Of a stretch of 64,000 bases of DNA, positions 6,767-60,517 are shown in pieces. This stretch comes from a virus, in the IMG/VR virus record IMGVR_UViG_3300037511_000359. One strand, 5' to 3'. Under the pieces are notes generated by a model. The model was not told where the DNA came from. It did not search any database and saw only the letters and a list, made by a program, of their open reading frames with translations. A program made the translations under genes and the position numbers. Every line of letters begins with the position of its first letter. The stretch's first letter is position 1.

Positions 6767-9394
6767 ATGCTGATCAATCTGCGGCCGTATCAGGAAGAGG
6801 CGATCGAGAGACTGCGCGAGAACATCATGCGCGGCGTGCGAAGGATGGTGCTCGTGATGGCGACAGGTAGCGGAAAGTGCCAAAAGTTCGGCACGCCCGT
6901 CCTTCGGTACGACGGTCGCATCGTGCCTATCGAGTCCGTGCAGGTCGGCGATCTCCTCATGGGTCCGGACAGCAAGCCGCGTCGCGTGCTCTCGACGACG
7001 CGCGGCTTCGGTCCGTTGTACCAGATCACGCCGATCAAGGGTGAGCCGTGGGTCTGCAACGACGTTCATGTGCTCTCCCTGGTGCATACGCAGACGGGAG
7101 AGATCGTCGACGTCGACCTCCAGAAGTACTTGGCCAGCAGCAAGAGTTTTAAGAACCTGTACAAGCAGTTTTCGCCGGAGAAAGGCGTAGATTTCGAGCA
7201 CGGCGCGACCGAGTTCCCGATCGATCCGTACTTTCTCGGAGTTTGGTACGGAGACGGAACGAAGGGCATCAACGGCGGAAGCCACCTCCGCGAGGTGGCC
7301 GTGTCGAAGCCCGATCCTGAGATCAAGGCACTCGCGGAGGAGATCGCGCGCCAGTGGGGACTTCGCGTGCGCACGAACGACAACGGCTGCCCAACGCACC
7401 ACATCGCACGGGAAATGCTCCCAGGGGCTGCGCCACAGCCGAATCCACTGCTCGACGCGCTACGGCTGGTCTACGGCGATGGCACTCACCTGCCGTACCA
7501 GTACATCACCGCTGCGCGTCAGCACCGCCAGGCGTTTCTCGCTGGACTTCTCGACGCTGATGGTTACTTGCACAACAACTGCTTCGAGATCTGCCAGAAG
7601 GTCAGAGGGTTCGCTGACGGGATCTGCTTCCTCGCGCGCTCGCTCGGAAAGCGGGCCCTGATGGTACCCAAGATCGTCAACGGCGAGACGTACTGGCGCG
7701 TGAGCCTGAGCGGCGACTTCACCGACTTGCCGCTCAGAATTCCGCGCAAGATCCCCACGAAGCGCATGCAGGCGAAGTGTGCGACCCGCACCGGCTTCTC
7801 GGTGCAGCAGGTCGAGGACGGGTACTACGCCGGCTTCGAGCTTGACGGCGACGGGCGCTACCTGATGGGCGACTTCACCGTCACGCACAACACGGTCGTC
7901 GCGTCGTCGATCATCGTTTCATCGCTCAACCTGGGGAACCGGTCGCTGTTCGTCGCACATCGCCGCGAGCTCATCAAGCAGTGTTTCTGTAAGCTCGTCC
8001 GTAACGGCGTGCCACCGCACGAGATCGGGATCGTGATGGCTGGTATCCCGGGTTCATCGTCAGGCTCTCTGTTCTCGGCGCTTGACCCGCAACTGTCGGA
8101 CGACAACCTGTGGCGCATGTTCGCGCGCTCACGTCCGAACGCTCCCGTGCAGGTCGGCTCGATTGACTCTCTGCGCGGCCGCGCCAAACCGAAGGCGGAT
8201 CTTGTAATAGCGGACGAAGCGCACAGGAGTTTATCCAAGGGCTGGCTGACGCTGTTCGAGAACTACAGCGATGCCGTAGTACTGGGTCTGACTGCGACGC
8301 CGTTTCGCGCCGACGGGCGCGGACTTGGCGAGTTCTACGGGCATCTCGAAGTCATCGCGACGCCGTCGATGCTCATGCGCGAAGGGCACCTTGTTGAGCC
8401 CATTATCTGGACGGTTCCAGCCGACCGACTGCCAGACCTGTCGAAGGTGAAGGTACGCGACGGGGACTACGACGAGGAGCAACTCGCGGAGGCGATGGAT
8501 CAGACAGCGCTCATCGGCGACATCGTCGATCACTGGGAGCGCCGCTCCGGCGGGATCCGTACGGTCATCTTCGCGGCCGGCGTCGAGCACAGCAAACACA
8601 TCGTGTCCCGCTTCGTGCAACGCGGGGTCCGCGCGGAGCACCTCGATGGCATGACGCCGACAGATCAGCGCGAGGCAATCTTGCGCCGCATCGACACCGG
8701 CGAAACAACGGTGTGTGTAAATGTAGGCGTGCTTACCGACGGCTGGGATCAGCCTTCGGTCAAGTGCGTTGTGCTCGCGCGCCCGACGCAGTCCGAGGGT
8801 CTGCATTTGCAGATGTCGGGTCGTTGCCTCCGTCCGTTCAACAACCAAGACGCCATCATCCTCGATCACGCTGGCAACATGCGTGTTCACGGTCGCCCGC
8901 AAGACGACCGCGAATTCTCGCTCGAAGGCCGCAAAAAGCGCTCTTCGTCGACCTCCGCCCCCTCCTGCAAAACCTGCGAGTGCCTCGCCGTCATCCCGAG
9001 CGCCGCGCGCATCTGCCCGATGTGCGGGCACCAGTTCAGCGCCGCGTCGACGGAGCGCGGCGCGCCTGAGGAAGTCGCCGGCGAGCTCGTCGAGATCCCG
9101 CGTTCGATCGCTGCCGGCCCCGACCTGCGCGAGCAGTGGAACGCGCTGGTCGAGCGCTGGCACAAGGCGAACCGATCGCGCGCCGTGCCGATGAAGCCAG
9201 GCTGGGTCGCGATGGAGTTTCGTCAGCGCACCGGCGCGACGCGGATCCCCGAAGGCTGCGCGCTGCCGACGCTGACCGAAGAGCAGGAGGCGAAGCTCGC
9301 GCGGTTCGGCGAGCTGAACCGGTACGCGCACGCGAACGGATGGTCGAAGGGCCGCTTGCACGCGGTGTTCAACGCGCAGGAGAAGAGCCAGTGA
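6767..9394 (+). CDS. superfamily 2 (DEAD/DEAH-like) helicase with intein and C-terminal Zn ribbon
   Basis: LRPYQ, ATGSGK|T, IADEAH, GLTATP, HLDG, QMSGRCLR, ILDHAGN motifs; C-terminal CxxC...CPMCG. Confidence 0.92.
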   Translation: MLINLRPYQEEAIERLRENIMRGVRRMVLVMATGSGKCQKFGTPVLRYDGRIVPIESVQVGDLLMGPDSKPRRVLSTTRGFGPLYQITPIKGEPWVCNDVHVLSLVHTQTGEIVDVDLQKYLASSKSFKNLYKQFSPEKGVDFEHGATEFPIDPYFLGVWYGDGTKGINGGSHLREVAVSKPDPEIKALAEEIARQWGLRVRTNDNGCPTHHIAREMLPGAAPQPNPLLDALRLVYGDGTHLPYQYITAARQHRQAFLAGLLDADGYLHNNCFEICQKVRGFADGICFLARSLGKRALMVPKIVNGETYWRVSLSGDFTDLPLRIPRKIPTKRMQAKCATRTGFSVQQVEDGYYAGFELDGDGRYLMGDFTVTHNTVVASSIIVSSLNLGNRSLFVAHRRELIKQCFCKLVRNGVPPHEIGIVMAGIPGSSSGSLFSALDPQLSDDNLWRMFARSRPNAPVQVGSIDSLRGRAKPKADLVIADEAHRSLSKGWLTLFENYSDAVVLGLTATPFRADGRGLGEFYGHLEVIATPSMLMREGHLVEPIIWTVPADRLPDLSKVKVRDGDYDEEQLAEAMDQTALIGDIVDHWERRSGGIRTVIFAAGVEHSKHIVSRFVQRGVRAEHLDGMTPTDQREAILRRIDTGETTVCVNVGVLTDGWDQPSVKCVVLARPTQSEGLHLQMSGRCLRPFNNQDAIILDHAGNMRVHGRPQDDREFSLEGRKKRSSSTSAPSCKTCECLAVIPSAARICPMCGHQFSAASTERGAPEEVAGELVEIPRSIAAGPDLREQWNALVERWHKANRSRAVPMKPGWVAMEFRQRTGATRIPEGCALPTLTEEQEAKLARFGELNRYAHANGWSKGRLHAVFNAQEKSQ
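6878..7891 (+). mobile_element. intein with LAGLIDADG homing endonuclease (338 aa) inserted in helicase Walker A
   Basis: Starts with Cys (GSGK|CQKFGTPV), ends THN followed by Thr; internal YFLGVWYGDG and FLAGLLDADG blocks. Removal restores GSGKT. Confidence 0.93.
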
Positions 9395-52033: not shown

Positions 52034-52248
52034 AGACGATGCTGATGCTTGCCGCGCTCCTCGCGAGCGCGTTGCTGCTGACCGCGTGCCCGTTCACGGC
52101 GCGCGGTCGCGCACCGTGTCCAGCGTGCGATGAGGAGTGCGACGACCACGGCTGCAACGAGTGCCGAGCGAAGCACTGCCCGGACGCTGGCCCGGACGCC
52201 AGCGACGCGGTCGCACATGCTGCGACCGATCTGCGTGATCGTTGTTGA
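52030..52248 (+). CDS. putative Cys-rich lipoprotein
   Basis: MKTMLMLAALLASALLLTAC lipobox; CPAC...C..HGC..C. Confidence 0.6.
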   Translation: MKTMLMLAALLASALLLTACPFTARGRAPCPACDEECDDHGCNECRAKHCPDAGPDASDAVAHAATDLRDRC

Positions 52249-52272
52249 CAGGTTCGCGTAGTGTTGTATAAT
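52245..52272 (+). promoter_or_regulatory. promoter, class C leader
   Basis: TTGACA-N16-TATAAT followed by CTTAGCGTGGAAGAGCGTGTCCGCGATG. Confidence 0.8.
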
Positions 52273-52680: not shown

Positions 52681-53616
52681 ATGCTCGACATCGACTACCT
52701 GCTCCGAGTCCGGACGCTCGTCACGCACGAAGGATGCGCCGACGGCATCGCGTCGGCGATCATCCTGCACGACGCGCTCCCTAGCGCACGAATCGAGTTC
52801 GTGCAGTACAACACCGCGGCGCACCGCGATCTGCGCGCCGAGCCTGGCATGCTGTTCTGCGACATGATGCCGCCCGAGGCGCGTGTGAAGGAGTTCGTCG
52901 GCGCGGGCGCGATCGTACTGGATCACCATCGCGGCGCGCGCGAGATCGTCGAGGCGTTCGGAGAACGCGGCGTGTTTGCGGACGAGGAGCGCGAGCCGAG
53001 CGTGAGCGGTGCGACTCTGGCGTTTCGCGAGGTGTGGTATCGCGTCGCGGCGACGCAGCGCCAGCCGAGCGACTACTACGCGCTGTTCGACTTCGCCAAG
53101 CTCGCTGGCATCCGCGACACGTGGCAGCGCAACGATCCGCGCTGGCGCGAAGCGTGCGCACAGGCTGCGGCGCTGCGCTTCTGGCCGCCCGAGATGCTGA
53201 TCGGCGCACCCATCGACGCGCTCGCTGCGCGCCTAGAGATCGGCGACGTCCTGCTCCAGCGCGACGCGGAGCGTGACGAGCGATCGATCGCGGAGGCGTA
53301 CCGGTTCGAGGCCGGCGGGCTGCGCGTCGTAGTGTTCGAGGGGCTGCACACGAGCGACATCGCGGAGCGTCTGTCGAGCGAAGCGGATCTCGTGCTCGGC
53401 TGGCACTACGCGATGGAGGACGGTCGCGCGCGGATGGTCGTGTCGTGCCGGTCGCGCGGCGCGGTGTCGTCGCTCGCGCTGGCGAAGGCCAACGGCGGGG
53501 GCGGGCACACGCAGGCGGCTGGGTTCCGCATCGATGCGCGGGCGGACGCGAGCCCGTATGTTACGCTGCGGCAACTCGTCGAGGAGTACGCCGGAGTGAT
53601 GCGCATCGCCGCATGA
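52681..53616 (+). CDS. DHH/DHHA1-family phosphoesterase
   Basis: THEGCADG, FCD, VLDHH, IRDTW and GGGHTQAAG motifs. Confidence 0.88.
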   Translation: MLDIDYLLRVRTLVTHEGCADGIASAIILHDALPSARIEFVQYNTAAHRDLRAEPGMLFCDMMPPEARVKEFVGAGAIVLDHHRGAREIVEAFGERGVFADEEREPSVSGATLAFREVWYRVAATQRQPSDYYALFDFAKLAGIRDTWQRNDPRWREACAQAAALRFWPPEMLIGAPIDALAARLEIGDVLLQRDAERDERSIAEAYRFEAGGLRVVVFEGLHTSDIAERLSSEADLVLGWHYAMEDGRARMVVSCRSRGAVSSLALAKANGGGGHTQAAGFRIDARADASPYVTLRQLVEEYAGVMRIAA

Positions 53617-53630
53617 GGTGCTCGCTGTAG

Positions 53631-55259
53631 ATGCACGCGAACCCGTACGCCGCGTTGTTCCTCGAGATGAGCGACCCGGAGAAGAACCGGGAGCTTCCGC
53701 GCGATCTCTCGTTTCGCGACATGGTCTGCCGCGGCGACATGGGCGACCTACCAGCGTCGGACACGCAGATCGCTCTCCTGTCCGCGGTCGACGGACGATC
53801 GATCGAAGACATCCTTCCGCGCGACCGGATGTTGTTCCACTTCAACACGGAGCGGCTGCCGTCGGGTCGACCTAGCCTCGTCATCCTGCGGACCGGTGTC
53901 CGCGCCGCGAAGTCCCTGATCGCTGCGCTCTCGCTCCTCTACAACGCGCTATTTTGCCAGTTTCGACGGCCACCGGACCCGAAGCAGGGCGAACGTCCTC
54001 AGGCGGACGGCATGATCGGCGTGCGCTCCGGCGAGGAGGTGCGCGCGCTCATCGTCGGCCCGAAGCTGCATCACGGTGCAGCGCCGCTGGAACACATCCG
54101 CGGCACGATGAAGAAGAGCCCGGTCCTCAGCAAGTTGATCGAGGAGGACAAAGCGGAGTCGATCACGGTGCGACGTCCCGACGGCGCGCTCGTGAAGATC
54201 ATGCGCATCGCCGCGGACAAGGGCGGCGGCAACCTGCGCGGCACGTGGCTCGCTGGCATCCTGTTTGACGAGGCCGCGTTCCACGACGACGACGAGGCCG
54301 CGGTGAACCTCGGCGACAACATCGATGCCGTGCTCGGTCGCCTTCTGCCGGGCGCACAAGCGTGGGTTGTGTCGTCACCGTGGTCCGAAGACGACTCGTT
54401 CAATCGGCTGTTCCTGCGCTTCTTCGGGCGCCCCGCCGACGCGCTCGCGTTCCACTCGGACACGCGCAGCATGAACCCGGCCTACCCGCAGGCGGACATC
54501 GATCGCGTGCGCCGGTACGATCCTGACAAGGCACAACGCGAGTTCGACGCGCTACCGCTTGCTGCTGGGAACAAGGCGTTCTTTCCGCTCGACGCGATCG
54601 AGAAGAGCATCAACGAGAAGCGCGACATGTACCTCGCGCCGGAACTTGGCGTGCCGCACAGCGCAGGGTCCGACTGGGGCTTCACGAAGAACAGCAGCGC
54701 GCTCGCGATCGCGCGTCCGATGCGCGCGACGCTCGACGGTCGCGAGGTCGTCAAGGCTGCGCTCGCGTACCACGAAGAGAAGCGCCCAGACAAGGGCGTG
54801 TCGCTGAAGCCGTCCGAGGTGGTGCGCGACTTCGCGCAGAAGTGCCGCAGGTACAGGGCGCGCAAGATCCAGGGCGACTACCACAGCCGCGAGACGACGG
54901 ACGAAGAACTGTCGAAACTGCGCGAGCAGGACCGCACGTTCGACATCATCTACGAGCCCGTGAGCCAGCAGCCGGACGAGATCGGCGAGCGCTTTGCGGA
55001 GATGCGTCGCAGGATGCAGGAGGGCTTGATCGACCTGCCTGATGACCCGGTGCTGCGGAAGCAGCTGGAGGATACGCGCAGTCGCGTGCTCCCGGGCGGA
55101 CGCATCGGGATCGTGGTACCGAAGCACGGCGCTCGCCACGGCGACGTGATGCAGGCGGCGATCTTGGCGCTCGTACAGGTAGACTTGACGGTGCGCCCGA
55201 CGGAGCGCAAGCCTATGACGCGGGGACGACGCGAGATGAACGACACAGGAGGGTTTTGA
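53631..55259 (+). CDS. terL: terminase large subunit
   Basis: Walker A variant LRTGVRAAKS, Walker B ILFDEAAF, coupling motif VVSSPW, RNase-H-like nuclease GSDWG...HGD; directly upstream of the portal module. Confidence 0.85.
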   Translation: MHANPYAALFLEMSDPEKNRELPRDLSFRDMVCRGDMGDLPASDTQIALLSAVDGRSIEDILPRDRMLFHFNTERLPSGRPSLVILRTGVRAAKSLIAALSLLYNALFCQFRRPPDPKQGERPQADGMIGVRSGEEVRALIVGPKLHHGAAPLEHIRGTMKKSPVLSKLIEEDKAESITVRRPDGALVKIMRIAADKGGGNLRGTWLAGILFDEAAFHDDDEAAVNLGDNIDAVLGRLLPGAQAWVVSSPWSEDDSFNRLFLRFFGRPADALAFHSDTRSMNPAYPQADIDRVRRYDPDKAQREFDALPLAAGNKAFFPLDAIEKSINEKRDMYLAPELGVPHSAGSDWGFTKNSSALAIARPMRATLDGREVVKAALAYHEEKRPDKGVSLKPSEVVRDFAQKCRRYRARKIQGDYHSRETTDEELSKLREQDRTFDIIYEPVSQQPDEIGERFAEMRRRMQEGLIDLPDDPVLRKQLEDTRSRVLPGGRIGIVVPKHGARHGDVMQAAILALVQVDLTVRPTERKPMTRGRREMNDTGGF

Positions 55260-55810
55260 TGGAGAGTCTCACGATCGAGTGTTCGGAGGAGAGCGTAATG
55301 CAGACGGCGATGCGGCGACTGTTCGAGCAACGCGGTGCACCGAGCGATGTAGCGGTGCCGGCGGTTCTGTTCGGCGCACTCTTCTGTCAGGTGCGCAGGC
55401 CTGCGATTCTGTCGGATGGAGAGAAGCCAGGGCTTGACGGTATGGTCGGCGTGCGCCCGGGCGAACTCGTGCGCGTTGCGATGGTGTTGCCATACTCCGG
55501 CCGTTGCGATCCGTATTTCAGCCGGATGCGCGCAGCGATCGGAGCGTCGCCCATCCTGTCCAAGCTGCTGGTGCGGTCATCTCCAGACGAGATGACGATT
55601 CGGCGTCCTGACGGACTGGACGTGCGGGTCGATCCGGTGAGCCCGTCGATGAGCGGCAGTAACCTGCGCTCGACGTGGCTCGCCGGCGCACTGTTCGACG
55701 ATGATCTGTGCAGCGATGCGGGGCTTGTTGGAGCGCTGGACGATGCGCTCCGCGCTGCATGGTCGCGTCTTCTGCCGGGCGCGATCTGGGCGGTCGTGTC
55801 GCACAAGTAG
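55259..55810 (+). CDS. truncated, degenerate paralog of the TerL ATPase domain
   Basis: ALFCQVRRP..DGMVGVRPGE..SPILSKL..RRPDG..NLRSTWLAGALFDD..RLLPGAIWAVVS aligns with the adjacent TerL; no Walker A, DEA changed to DDD, no nuclease domain. Confidence 0.85.
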   Translation: MESLTIECSEESVMQTAMRRLFEQRGAPSDVAVPAVLFGALFCQVRRPAILSDGEKPGLDGMVGVRPGELVRVAMVLPYSGRCDPYFSRMRAAIGASPILSKLLVRSSPDEMTIRRPDGLDVRVDPVSPSMSGSNLRSTWLAGALFDDDLCSDAGLVGALDDALRAAWSRLLPGAIWAVVSHK

Positions 55811-55923
55811 AAACCCCCTCCTCCGAGTCGCCATCGGAGAAGGGGGGCACCGTCCGCCGGCCGCCACAGCCTTGGACACCGATCATTCTACTCGACGCGC
55901 GGGTCGCGTCCAGGAGAAGCCGC

Positions 55924-56859
55924 ATGCTCCGGTGTCCGTTCTGTCGATCTGCCGAGACGCGCTGGGACGTGTCCGGCGACCACCTGTCCTGCGACGACTG
56001 CGATCGCCGCATCACCATCCACCGCGAGCCGCCGACGTCGTACGACACGTACGTCGATGCGCCGAGCGCTGGCCGGCTCGAGCGCTGGATCGATGGCGCA
56101 GACGCGTCGCTCGCCGCGGACCGCACGTGGCTCTTCGCGGAGATCACGCGCCTCGACAACTACCGCGTGCGCGTGCTCGGTTCCGCGGGCAAGGCGACCC
56201 GCTGCACGGTGACGCGCACCATCCTCGGCTGGTTCGCCACGATGCTCTGGAACATCGCGCGGGCGCGCTCGAGCGAAGCGGACCTCGTCGTGCGCCCATC
56301 GCGCCAGCGCGCTACGGCGTTCGCTGGGTACCGTCACGCTGCTGCGGCAGCGCTCTCCCCTGCCCCGCTGCTCGGCCTCGGCGCTGGCCTACGTCTCGGC
56401 GGCGCACGCGCGACGCATGGGCTGCGCGGCGGGCTGCAGTTCGGTCGCATCGCGTGCTCGCCGGACGCGAACCGGTCGGGAGCAGCGTGCGGCGAAGACG
56501 AACTGCTCGACCGGATCGACCTCGACGCTGCGGTGCGCGCGGCCGGTATCAGCGACACGGACCTACGCTTGCTGGAGCTGACCGACGTGGGCGTCCTGCG
56601 CTCGCGAGCGCGCCGGACGAAGCGCGGCATCGCGCTGGCACTGGAGCCGCTCAGCGTGCCCGATGCGTTGGAGCGACTGCGGGGGCTGCCCGACGTACCG
56701 AGGACGCCGCACGAGGCGCGTAAGCGCATTCAGCGAGCGCGGGATGCGATGCGGGACGCGCTGCGTGAGCGGGGGCTCATCCCGCCGCGCCAGCGCCGCG
56801 CTGCACCCGCAGCGACGACGGCCGCAGCGGTGCGGCCGCCGATGCAGGAGTGGGTATGA
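55924..56859 (+). CDS. Zn-ribbon + sigma-70 region-4-like transcription regulator
   Basis: CPFC...CDDC N-terminus; C-terminal DTDLRLLEL...ARKRIQRARDAMRDAL resembles ECF sigma region 4. Confidence 0.5.
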   Translation: MLRCPFCRSAETRWDVSGDHLSCDDCDRRITIHREPPTSYDTYVDAPSAGRLERWIDGADASLAADRTWLFAEITRLDNYRVRVLGSAGKATRCTVTRTILGWFATMLWNIARARSSEADLVVRPSRQRATAFAGYRHAAAAALSPAPLLGLGAGLRLGGARATHGLRGGLQFGRIACSPDANRSGAACGEDELLDRIDLDAAVRAAGISDTDLRLLELTDVGVLRSRARRTKRGIALALEPLSVPDALERLRGLPDVPRTPHEARKRIQRARDAMRDALRERGLIPPRQRRAAPAATTAAAVRPPMQEWV

Positions 56860-57155
56860 GCGACGAGCCGATCCTTCGAGGGTGGAAGGAGATCGCGCAG
56901 GCCTGCGAGGTGTCCGAGGACACCGTGCAGCGTGCCTCGAAGCGGAACCGCGACCCGCTGCCTGTGGACTACAACGCGTTTCACAAGCCGTGGATCTACC
57001 GCGCGGCGCTCGCGGCGTGGTTGCGACGGAACAACATGGCGGCGCCCGTGTACCATGCACTGATCAAGGCTGGCCTGCACCCGTCGCAGGAGCCAGCGAA
57101 ACCGATCGCGAAGGCGACGGTCACGCCCATCGTGCGGCGTCGTGCGGCTGGCTGA
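56856..57155 (+). CDS. excisionase/AlpA-like winged HTH protein
   Basis: LRGWKEIAQACEVSEDTVQR...DPLPV...W.YRAALAAW. Confidence 0.7.
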   Translation: MSDEPILRGWKEIAQACEVSEDTVQRASKRNRDPLPVDYNAFHKPWIYRAALAAWLRRNNMAAPVYHALIKAGLHPSQEPAKPIAKATVTPIVRRRAAG

Positions 57156-57571: not shown

Positions 57572-60517
57572 TTGAACGCCCCGCTCTGGAACGTCGACCC
57601 CGCGTCTCTGGCGCGGGCCTTCGTCAGCAAGCGTGTACCGCGTTCGGAGCAGTGGCGCACGCACTTCGGTCGCAGCCTGACCCCGGCGCGCATCGAGAGC
57701 GCGATCCGTGACGCTGCGGACGGGTCGCTCCAGGACCTGACCGACGCGGGCGCGGAGACGATCCTTGTCGACCCGCACCTTGCGAGCGTTCTGCGCAAGC
57801 GCTTCGGTGCGATCTCCCAGGTCGACTACGACCTCACGCCCGCGCAGGGCGACGACCTCGACAAGCAGACCGCCGCGGACATCGCATCGATGGTCCGTTC
57901 GCAGCTCGACGCGATCCCCGCATTCCGTCAGGCGATCGAAGATCTCGCGTGGGGGCACTGGCACGGGCGCGCTGCGCTGGAGATCCACTGGGATCGCCGG
58001 TTCGCGAGTCGCGCGCGCTATCAGGTCGCTGAGCTCGGATGGATCCACCCGCGCCGGCTGACGCTCGGACCAGAGCGGGAACTGCGTGTGATCGACCCTG
58101 CGCAGTACGCCGGGCAGTTCCAGCCGGTGGGACTCGACACGCGCATCGCGTGCAAGTTCATCCGGTTCGTTCCGCGGCTGTTCAGCGACTACCCGGAGCG
58201 CGACGGTCTGAACCCGCGCTGCCTGTACTGGTCGAACTTCAAGCGGTTCGCGGCGCGCGACCGCATGATCTTGATCGAGCTTTACGCGAAGCCGTGGAGG
58301 ATCATCGAGGAAGACGGGACAGCGCCCGCTGACCCGGGCTCGTTCGATGAGGCGCTCGATCAGGCCGATGCGCTTGGCGGTGTCACCGTCGCGAAGATGC
58401 CCAAGGGGATGAAACTTCGCGTCGAAGGGCTCGACCCGAAGTCTGGCGACTTGCACAACCACACGATCGAGGACTGCGACAAGCAGATCAGCAAGCTCGT
58501 GCTCGGCTCGACCGGTACGATGGATGCTCAGCCGCAGGGCATCGGCGGTCAGCAGGCGCGCGTCAACCAGGACGACCAGTACCTGATCTTCGCGTCCGAC
58601 GGCGAGCGCATCGGCGGCGTCCTGCAGCGCGACCTCGTCAACGCGATCGTGCTTCTGAACGCGCCGTTTTACGGGTTATCGACATTCGACGCGCTCCGCT
58701 ACGCGCCGAAGTTCACGCTGCGCACCGCGCCGGAGAAGGACCGCAAGGCAGAGCTCGCGAACATCCGCTCGATCGTCGATCTCGGTCTCGCGGTCGCCGT
58801 CGACGAGATCCGCGAGCGCACCGGGTTCAGGAAGCCGAACAACGATGAAGCGATCGTTCAGATCGTCGAGTCGCCGCAGGACGACGTCAGCGCTCGCTAC
58901 ATCCCGCCGCGCGCGATGGTCATCGACCCGACCGAAACGGAGCCCGGAATCGGCGAACACGGCGGACCGGGCGCGCAGCCGTCCAGCGCGCCAGCGAAGC
59001 CCGACGGCGCGCCGACTGCGCCAGCGAACGGCGCCTCGCCCGCCGCTGCGACGCTCGAGCCAGCCTCGCCCGATGAGGACTTCGATCTGTTCAGCGGACC
59101 GCTCGGACCAACGCTCTCGGAGATCGCCGATCTTGCGACGCCGGAGCCCTCTGACGGGCTAACGAACTTCCCCGCGCTCGGTGACAACCGGCGCGTCTCG
59201 CTGGTCAACAGCCGGTTCAAGGTGTTTCCCGTCAGCGTCGCTCGACAGCTGCGCGACGAGTACCCGCAGATCTGGTCGAAGGGCGGCACACCGCTTGCGA
59301 ACCTGCAGTTCCGCAAACTTGCGCCCATCGTCGACCGCCGCGGTGTCGTCGAGACGGACGCGGAAGAGGAGGCGGTCAGACTGCGCGAGGCGTGGGCCGC
59401 ACGGCACGTCGTCGACTCGGACGTCGCGGGCGTCGTCGCTCAGATCAAGTGGCTCGTCATCGGCTCGCAGGGCTTCGATCGTATGCTCCGTGTGATCGGC
59501 GTCGAGAAGGCGCGCCTGCGCGAGGTCGCGCCGCAGCCTCGCGAGGTCGCGCCACCAGCGCAGGCGCCCGCTGCCGCAGCGACCGCGCGTCGTCTCACGA
59601 CGGAGCCCGGCTACGTCAATGGCACGACCGAGGACATCTCCGATGCGCGCACGCGCCGCGGCGCCACCATCACGACGCGCTGGGCGCGCGCGCTGAGCCG
59701 CGCCGTCGTTGGACATGCGACGGCGGCGGACATCCGCACAGCGCTTCGCGCTGCCGCGAAGGCGCTGGACGTTCGTGCGCTGGCGACCGAGGTCGAGCGC
59801 TGCATGCTGCACAGCGCGGCACTCGGCGTGATGGATGCGGACTGGGAAGCGGCGAACGAGGAGCCGATTGCTCCGTCGACGTTCACGCTCGAAGGCGGTC
59901 AGCGCGGGTTCGCAACGAAACCGTTTTTCGAGGCGATCAACGCGTTTCTGAGCCGCGAGATTGTCGAGCGCTCGGTCTGGGATCGACTCGTCGGCAACGC
60001 GAAAAAAGCCGCGTTCAGCATCGCAAAGCTGCAGACGAAGCGGATGCTTCAGGTCGCGTTCGACGAACTAGGCAAGAGCATCACGGCGGGCAAGTCGCTC
60101 GCGAACTTCTCGAAGGCGCTCGATGCGCGCTTCACGGAAGCAGGCTGGAAGAAGCTGAAGCCGTCGCACGTCGAGACGGTGTTCCGCAACGCGACGATGG
60201 GCGCGTACAGCAGCGGTCGCGAAGTGCAGATGACGCAGCCCGCCGTGCTGAAGGCGCGCCCGTACTGGCAGATCCGCGTGGTGAAAGACGACCGATGCCG
60301 CGCGACACACGCGAAGGTGCGCGGATTCGTGCTGCGCGCGGACGATCCATTCTGGAAGAGCGTCGGTAGGCCACCGTGGGGACATGCGTGCAGATGCGTT
60401 CTGTCTTCACGCAGCGAGCGCGAGATCAAGCGACTCGGTCTCACCGTGCGCAGTGGTTCGGAGATTTCCGGTCTGCCCGATCCGGGCTGGTCGTCGTCGA
60501 AATCCGCTCTGATCTAG
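57572..60517 (+). CDS. portal protein (Mu gp29/DUF935-like) fused to an unknown domain and a MuF head-morphogenesis domain
   Basis: DPHLASVLRKR, AWGHWHGRAALEI, ELYAKPW, IEDCDKQISKLVLG portal motifs; C-terminal ETVFRNA..AYSSGR..PYWQ..DDRCRATH..DDPFW..PPWGHACRC is MuF; one 981-aa frame. Confidence 0.85.
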   Translation: MNAPLWNVDPASLARAFVSKRVPRSEQWRTHFGRSLTPARIESAIRDAADGSLQDLTDAGAETILVDPHLASVLRKRFGAISQVDYDLTPAQGDDLDKQTAADIASMVRSQLDAIPAFRQAIEDLAWGHWHGRAALEIHWDRRFASRARYQVAELGWIHPRRLTLGPERELRVIDPAQYAGQFQPVGLDTRIACKFIRFVPRLFSDYPERDGLNPRCLYWSNFKRFAARDRMILIELYAKPWRIIEEDGTAPADPGSFDEALDQADALGGVTVAKMPKGMKLRVEGLDPKSGDLHNHTIEDCDKQISKLVLGSTGTMDAQPQGIGGQQARVNQDDQYLIFASDGERIGGVLQRDLVNAIVLLNAPFYGLSTFDALRYAPKFTLRTAPEKDRKAELANIRSIVDLGLAVAVDEIRERTGFRKPNNDEAIVQIVESPQDDVSARYIPPRAMVIDPTETEPGIGEHGGPGAQPSSAPAKPDGAPTAPANGASPAAATLEPASPDEDFDLFSGPLGPTLSEIADLATPEPSDGLTNFPALGDNRRVSLVNSRFKVFPVSVARQLRDEYPQIWSKGGTPLANLQFRKLAPIVDRRGVVETDAEEEAVRLREAWAARHVVDSDVAGVVAQIKWLVIGSQGFDRMLRVIGVEKARLREVAPQPREVAPPAQAPAAAATARRLTTEPGYVNGTTEDISDARTRRGATITTRWARALSRAVVGHATAADIRTALRAAAKALDVRALATEVERCMLHSAALGVMDADWEAANEEPIAPSTFTLEGGQRGFATKPFFEAINAFLSREIVERSVWDRLVGNAKKAAFSIAKLQTKRMLQVAFDELGKSITAGKSLANFSKALDARFTEAGWKKLKPSHVETVFRNATMGAYSSGREVQMTQPAVLKARPYWQIRVVKDDRCRATHAKVRGFVLRADDPFWKSVGRPPWGHACRCVLSSRSEREIKRLGLTVRSGSEISGLPDPGWSSSKSALI

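Follow-up and report, generated by a model that had tools for sequence, protein, structure and literature searches.

What is a second, far shorter version of the large terminase subunit (TerL) doing directly behind the TerL gene of a phage? The question is raised by the window analysed here, a stretch of 64,000 nucleotides from an uncultured phage (IMG/VR record IMGVR_UViG_3300037511_000359; 67% G+C), in a plus-strand region with the layout of a Mu-like head module. At positions 55259-55810 an open reading frame (ORF) of 183 residues, which we call the mini-ORF and its product the mini-terminase, starts on the last base of the TerL stop codon. The answer we favour, with a probability of about 0.45, is that the mini-ORF is a genuine accessory gene, translated and kept by selection, and that its product, a truncated and inactive paralogue of the TerL ATPase, would act by binding TerL or its partners. 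This answer draws on sequence comparison and structure prediction, and it has to be weighed first against the possibility that the mini-ORF is debris and then against other functions that a terminase without an active site might serve.

Anatomy and predicted fold of the mini-terminase

A sequence-only reading of this DNA had described the ORF as coupled to the TerL stop and as aligning with the TerL ATPase region over most of its length, and both points hold. The ATG of the mini-ORF and the TGA of TerL overlap by one base, the A (TGATG; TTTTGATGG), and in BLASTP residues 25-181 pair with TerL residues 91-248 (158 residues, 42% identity, E 2e-34). The DNA of the two genes is collinear as well, and two blocks of 80% identity are both displaced by 1430 nt. 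Synonymous divergence between the genes (dS) is 1.13 and saturated, with a nonsynonymous divergence (dN) of 0.63, and the duplication is therefore old. Identity to 20 other TerLs is 42-49%; a recent capture from a sampled phage was rejected, since no donor TerL above 49% identity was found.

The same reading had placed the start of the homology just after Walker A. The copy is indeed truncated near this motif, but the similarity begins at the Walker A arginine itself and a remnant of the motif is present: in the multiple alignment R-A-A-K-S of TerL corresponds to R-G-A-P-S of the mini-terminase, so that the P-loop lysine has been replaced by proline. The beta-strand ahead of the P-loop is missing, and a helix stands there instead. 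At Walker B the substitution of ALFDDD for ILFDEA, also noted there, is confirmed by the alignment (GALFDDD versus GILFDEA), and the position of the catalytic glutamate is occupied by D, D, H and A in the four close members of the mini family. The C-terminus reads ...AVVSHK* where TerL has ...WVVSSPW; as had been noted, the ORF ends at motif III and lacks the RNase H-like nuclease domain, the alignment covering TerL 91-248 with no residues beyond, and the lid subdomain is missing as well. TerL itself carries Walker A (R-A-A-K-S), Walker B with the catalytic glutamate (LFDE), motif III (SSPW) and the C-terminal nuclease part in this order. Searched alone, the mini-terminase brought no Pfam or PHROG model over threshold, and tblastx in this G+C-rich DNA returned noise and nothing informative. 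Judged by its sequence, the mini-ORF encodes a diverged, truncated and catalytically dead paralogue of TerL.

The AlphaFold2 model of the mini-terminase, built from 29 sequences in an alignment dominated by TerLs, has a mean predicted local distance difference test score (pLDDT) of 87.2 and a predicted template modelling score (pTM) of 0.82. The Atlas's own model (pTM 0.72) agrees with it and matches terminase clusters with a template modelling (TM) score of 0.71 over residues 21-183. Among solved structures the best match is the D6E TerL (Z 10.9, root-mean-square deviation 3.4 A over 124 residues; VIA-align), in which chain residues 37-172 align with model residues 24-183, from the P-loop to the strand ahead of motif III; further matches are Sf6 (Z 8.8), T4 gp17 (7.7) and P74-26 (6.7). 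The part present in the mini-terminase is thus predicted to be the additional-strand catalytic-glutamate (ASCE) ATPase fold of the TerL N-terminal domain.

Trans-acting arginine fingers have been mapped in TerLs, at R139 of P74-26 and at R158 of D6E and R146 of phi29 (see Xu et al.). Two arginines of the mini-terminase, R137 and R170, are candidate equivalents, placed onto the known fingers by topology and spacing and not by superposed coordinates. Neither of them varies in any of the 29 TerL and mini sequences aligned. When solved structures were searched with a sequence profile, no residue of the mini-terminase could be mapped onto a solved TerL.

The mini-terminase model also matches short uncharacterised proteins in BFVD, from Gordonia phages Hedwig (122 aa) and NancyRae (143 aa) and from Burkholderia phage BcepSaruman (130 aa), and the Atlas holds clusters of terminase-like proteins of 130-190 aa. 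From these matches it follows that small TerL-like proteins may form a wider, unstudied class.

Homologues, selection and decay

A search of 5.8 billion protein clusters returned three metagenomic homologues (P0004, P0005 and P0006) of 182-183 aa, with 64-70% identity and identical ends. The close family stands on at least 11 contigs, the window's own sequence included, with at least 8 further contigs for these three. A profile search of 1.84 billion representatives gave one representative cluster for the close group, plus P0037, a protein of 161 aa that is 40% identical to the mini-terminase and likewise to TerL and that matches both boundaries of the mini-terminase. P0037 and the minis have in common a derived R-x-x-P-x-D in place of the P-loop and an identical number of residues after RLLPG. 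At Walker B it has C-E in place of D-E, the aspartate being replaced by cysteine and the glutamate kept. P0037 comes from a Logan contig of 1982 bp and represents a second, deep branch of the mini family.

In a first tree the four minis form a clade with 100/100 support, with a stem of 2.08 changes per site and crown branches of 0.08-0.29, similar in magnitude to those of the TerLs. In a second tree P0037 groups with the minis (Shimodaira-Hasegawa-like approximate likelihood ratio test, SH-aLRT, 96), within the TerL subclade that contains the window's TerL; this join calls for caution because both stand on long branches. No carrier of the mini-ORF was found in metagenome contigs scanned with the mini and TerL alignments, in IMG/VR or in genome contigs, and tblastn of the mini-terminase against 50,697 phage records gave no match. 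TerL itself reaches only 32% against cultured phages in its best tblastn match. One further database protein, P0057 (4728 aa), matches positions 104-157 of the mini profile in 24 separate stretches; it is probably a repeat protein that resembles the minis by chance.

Is such a copy kept by selection? Residues 1-13 of the minis lie downstream of the TerL stop and have no counterpart in TerL, and eight of them are invariant (M1, E2, S3, T5, C8, E10, E11 and S12). Their conservation outside the TerL homology speaks for a start codon overlapping the TerL stop. The differences between the window's protein and each homologue are strongly clustered, with a variance per 10-residue window of 4.6-7.9 versus 2.0 +/- 0.6 under neutrality, a level reached in none of 626 open simulations. 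Replacements are also milder than neutral ones, the fractions of simulations reaching the observed value being 0.06, 0.02 and 0.002. Columns that are invariant among the minis are more conserved in TerLs (Mann-Whitney p 0.013), and across the four minis 33 of the 56 TerL columns with at least 90% conservation are unchanged, including R25, GVRxGE, RRPDG, NLRSTWLAG-LFD and RLLPGA. The conserved columns that have been altered include the Walker A lysine, the catalytic glutamate and motif III. Gene conversion from the resident TerL was considered for the variable block at residues 79-101 and rejected, since by eye the resemblance to TerL in this block is no greater in the window's mini-terminase than in the rest of the minis.

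Several observations weigh against a maintained gene with a role at TerL. The family is very small, with its one representative cluster among 1.84 billion. The closest available phage, L001, whose TerL is 84% identical, does not have the gene, and the mini-ORF is therefore dispensable. In neutral simulations with substitutions alone about 20% of frames stay open at 68% identity in G+C-rich sequence of this kind, and disrupted copies would be missed because the protein database that supplied the homologues lists open frames only. The G+C content at third codon positions (GC3) is 0.74 versus 0.84-0.87 in the flanking structural genes, and the codon-usage score is 0.16 versus 0.37-0.46. The helix APLEHIRGTM, invariant in close TerLs, varies freely in the minis. 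Finally, the binding of the mini-terminase to TerL is purely something we infer, as are its expression and its effect on packaging.

Many of these observations also speak for the foremost alternative, according to which the mini-ORF is the slowly decaying scar of a partial TerL duplication or gene replacement, without function and open by chance in a G+C-rich genome. The loss of the catalytic residues, GC3 and codon scores below those of the neighbouring structural genes, the absence from L001, the share of substitution-only simulations that stay open at the observed divergence, the ascertainment of open copies by a protein database and the tiny family would all be expected of such a scar. Against it, start and stop are common to five protein clusters down to 40% identity, and every length difference within the family is in frame. 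The alternation of conserved and variable blocks was produced by no neutral simulation, the conserved N-terminus is not of TerL origin, and a stem of 2.08 changes per site is not one that could be crossed neutrally with the frame unbroken. The fold is predicted with confidence, and the spread of GC3 and codon scores among the phage's other genes includes the values of the mini-ORF. We consider a decaying scar unlikely, and would put the odds that the mini-ORF is under selection, as read from these sequence comparisons, at roughly two in three.

The intact frame had been taken from the start as a sign of maintenance and not of fresh debris, and the homologues that share both ends, at 64-70% and in one case 40% identity, with their clustered and milder differences, support this. 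On conservation in relatives the outcome is divided: the gene is absent from L001, and no frame-disrupted copy was seen in a protein database of open frames. The pattern of change in the minis, with the cis-acting catalytic set lost, the candidate trans-acting arginines kept and the helix APLEHIRGTM freed, points to a change of job and not to uniform decay, and it is only suggestive because so few sites are involved. The mini-ORF is thus probably a maintained accessory gene, rare and lineage-restricted, rather than debris.

Possible roles of an inactive terminase copy

If the mini-ORF is maintained, what might its product do? The mini-terminase appears to keep the half of the ATPase fold that bears the Walker B strand and both candidate trans-acting arginine fingers, and to have lost what it would need to bind and cleave ATP by itself (the P-loop strand, the Walker A lysine, the catalytic glutamate, motif III and the lid), together with the nuclease domain. 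With its own catalytic set lost and the candidate fingers kept, an action through protein-protein contacts is the most likely one. The mini-terminase may dock like a neighbouring subunit on the nucleotide face of the TerL ATPase domain, or on another partner of TerL. Once docked, it could modulate the packaging motor as a pseudo-subunit, at the level of assembly, ATPase firing or nuclease licensing. We favour this reading because elements of the subunit interface are kept, the active site is destroyed and the gene is coupled to TerL. In its most specific form, the mini-terminase would be a dedicated pseudo-subunit of the packaging motor, an arginine-finger half-domain that caps or enters TerL assemblies and either switches the motor or nuclease or poisons rivals; this form we offer tentatively, as possible and somewhat improbable.

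The mini-terminase is homologous to TerL (of the Mu gp28-like head-module type, PHROG 2) and shares with it the ATPase core fold, the Walker B aspartate and both candidate fingers. It differs in being one third as long and in having a family-specific N-terminus of 24 residues, and because all of the elements listed above are missing it is not itself a packaging enzyme. Inactive paralogous subunits exist in ring and clamp-loader ATPases, for example the delta-prime subunit of the E. coli clamp loader. The likeness to this type lies in a degenerate, presumably non-hydrolysing ASCE/AAA-type paralogue with a predicted arginine-finger face toward its neighbour; the difference is that the mini-terminase is a truncated half-domain and not a full-length paralogue, and that its assembly with TerL is putative. 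A dead paralogue of an oligomeric ATPase would be of a known kind, and to our knowledge no viral terminase has so far been reported to have such an inactive subunit. A literature search found no paper that combines terminase, pseudo-ATPase and phage.

In the current view a terminase motor consists of TerL, the small terminase subunit (TerS) and portal only. If our reading is true, a conserved dead TerL half-domain that is co-translated with TerL adds a regulatory or competitive layer to packaging, and no regulatory dead paralogue of a terminase would have been described before it. As the candidate trans-acting arginines are kept and the cis-acting residues gone, the mini-terminase would also be a natural reagent for the model of inter-subunit ATP firing. 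If it is a scar, it is a clean example of the time over which a G+C-rich phage may keep a gene fragment open, and annotators should take it as a warning.

A close variant of the pseudo-subunit idea holds that the mini-terminase is a weapon, a dead subunit that poisons the TerL rings of co-infecting phages or satellites while the phage's own TerL tolerates it, resulting in superinfection or satellite exclusion. The cargo slot that the mini-ORF occupies is variable and has different small ORFs in relatives (see below), a setting typical of genes for accessory or competitive functions. The mini-terminase has not co-diverged with its own TerL, its distance to every TerL of the clade being about the same (42-49%), and candidate trans-acting arginines kept without cis-acting catalytic residues give it the classic make-up of a ring poison. 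However, being coupled to its own TerL, it would reach the phage's own motor in roughly stoichiometric amounts, the window shows neither a satellite nor a second phage, and the interaction on which the idea rests is an inferred one. We regard poisoning of rivals as quite improbable.

Least supported among the proposed functions, and very improbable in our view, is an anti-defence decoy or sponge that would occupy TerL-ATPase-sensing proteins of the signal transduction ATPases with numerous domains (STAND) class, of the Avs1-3 type, and block their assembly: Avs1-3 are reported to recognise TerL through direct binding (PMC13581612), the TerL ATPase-like fold is kept, with a chain of an Avs3-terminase complex (8dgc_E, Z 7.3) among the fold matches, and the accessory-slot position fits, but, with the P-loop and the nuclease domain missing, a sensor would find much less to read. 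The one small phage protein so far characterised that weakly resembles the D6E TerL ATPase domain, Ksap2 (Bas60_220) of phage Bas60, binds KpAvs2 and activates rather than blocks it (PMC11564622), so that a TerL look-alike is as likely to be a liability as a shield. Like the mini-terminase, Ksap2 is a small protein of a narrow phage group; its authors report no sequence homology to terminases (PMC11564622), whereas the mini-terminase is an obvious paralogue that adjoins TerL. The mini-terminase bears on how phages handle the fact that their most conserved protein is an immune signature.

The locus and its variable slot

The features of the locus are collected in Table 1. A simple consensus scan found a single plus-strand promoter-like site upstream of the run formed by the DHH/DHHA1 phosphoesterase gene directly ahead of TerL, TerL and the mini-ORF, and none between TerL and the mini-ORF. 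The ribosome-binding site of the mini-ORF overlaps codons for the TerL C-terminus T-G-G-F, which is invariant in five TerLs. A fusion of TerL and the mini-terminase by frameshifting was dropped, since there is no slippery heptamer at the site and T-G-G-F is the conserved natural end of TerL. The mini-ORF is probably translated via coupling to TerL, and a unit that could be transcribed from the promoter at 52245 may end at the hairpin behind it. The region of the mini-ORF has no Rfam support for a structured RNA, and no flanking direct repeats of a mobile cassette were found around it.

Table 1. Positions of the features discussed, in window coordinates
Feature	Position	Strand	Remarks
Promoter, sigma-70-type (TTGACA, 16 nt, TATAAT)	52245..52272	+	12/12 matches; 0.3 sites expected in shuffles
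DHH/DHHA1 phosphoesterase	52681-53616	+	PHROG 4771, E 3.5e-25
TerL, 542 aa, parent-type gene	53631..55259	+	PHROG 2 large terminase, E 9e-16
Ribosome-binding site AGGAGGG	55247..55253	+	5 nt ahead of the mini-ORF ATG, within the last TerL codons
Mini-ORF, 183 aa	55259..55810	+	N-terminal helix 1-24, then predicted TerL ATPase core
Degenerate P-loop remnant R25-G-A-P28-S29	55331..55345	+	Pro for Lys in four close members and P0037
R137, candidate finger	55667..55669	+	Between helix 131-137 and Walker B strand 140-147; P74-26 R139 position
Walker B remnant L-F-D-D-D	55691..55705	+	Walker B Asp (D147) kept
R170, candidate finger	55766..55768	+	Between helix 157-170 and last strand 171-180; D6E R158 / phi29 R146 position
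Hairpin, 13-bp, G+C-rich	55814..55846		Closes the slot; starts 4 nt past the mini-ORF stop
Next gene, 311 aa, N-terminal CxxC...CxxC zinc-ribbon-like	55924..56859	+	Starts M-L-R-C-P-F-C ... C-D-D-C
101-aa protein, weak helix-turn-helix match	56850-57155	+	Between TerL and portal, beside the 311-aa gene
Portal fused to MuF, one 981-aa frame	57572-60517	+	Portal_Mu E 6.5e-50; MuF E 3.6e-13

L001 keeps the DHH gene (76% identical), TerL, the hairpin, the zinc-ribbon-like gene and the portal. Its slot, from the TerL stop to the hairpin, holds an unrelated 61-aa ORF (7628-7813) instead of the mini-ORF; the start of this ORF is likewise coupled to that stop (TGATATG), and the same GGAGGG ribosome-binding site precedes it. 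That this ORF is a further-decayed mini-ORF was rejected, there being no similarity. As the flanks are conserved and the contents differ, the slot is an exchange site for small cargo genes. Flanked by a conserved gene end on one side and a conserved hairpin on the other, and replaced by other content in L001, the mini-ORF resembles morons and other variable cargo cassettes. It differs from morons in that the consensus scan found no promoter of its own, with an apparent reliance on coupling to TerL, and in that its cargo duplicates the essential gene beside it and is not foreign.

The hairpin is conserved in L001 (about 7815-7850), where one pair is changed on both sides, from A-T to G-C. Read on the minus strand, it scores as an intrinsic terminator with a T-rich run behind it; on the plus strand it is without a U tract. 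Neither Pfam nor PHROG gave a match for the 311-aa zinc-ribbon-like protein; L001 has a version of it with 63% identity, and its gene is kept with or without the mini-ORF. No recognisable small terminase adjoins TerL. Downstream of the portal-MuF gene lies a Mu-type protease, and the L001 match to the portal-MuF fusion spans residues 1-940 at 71%.

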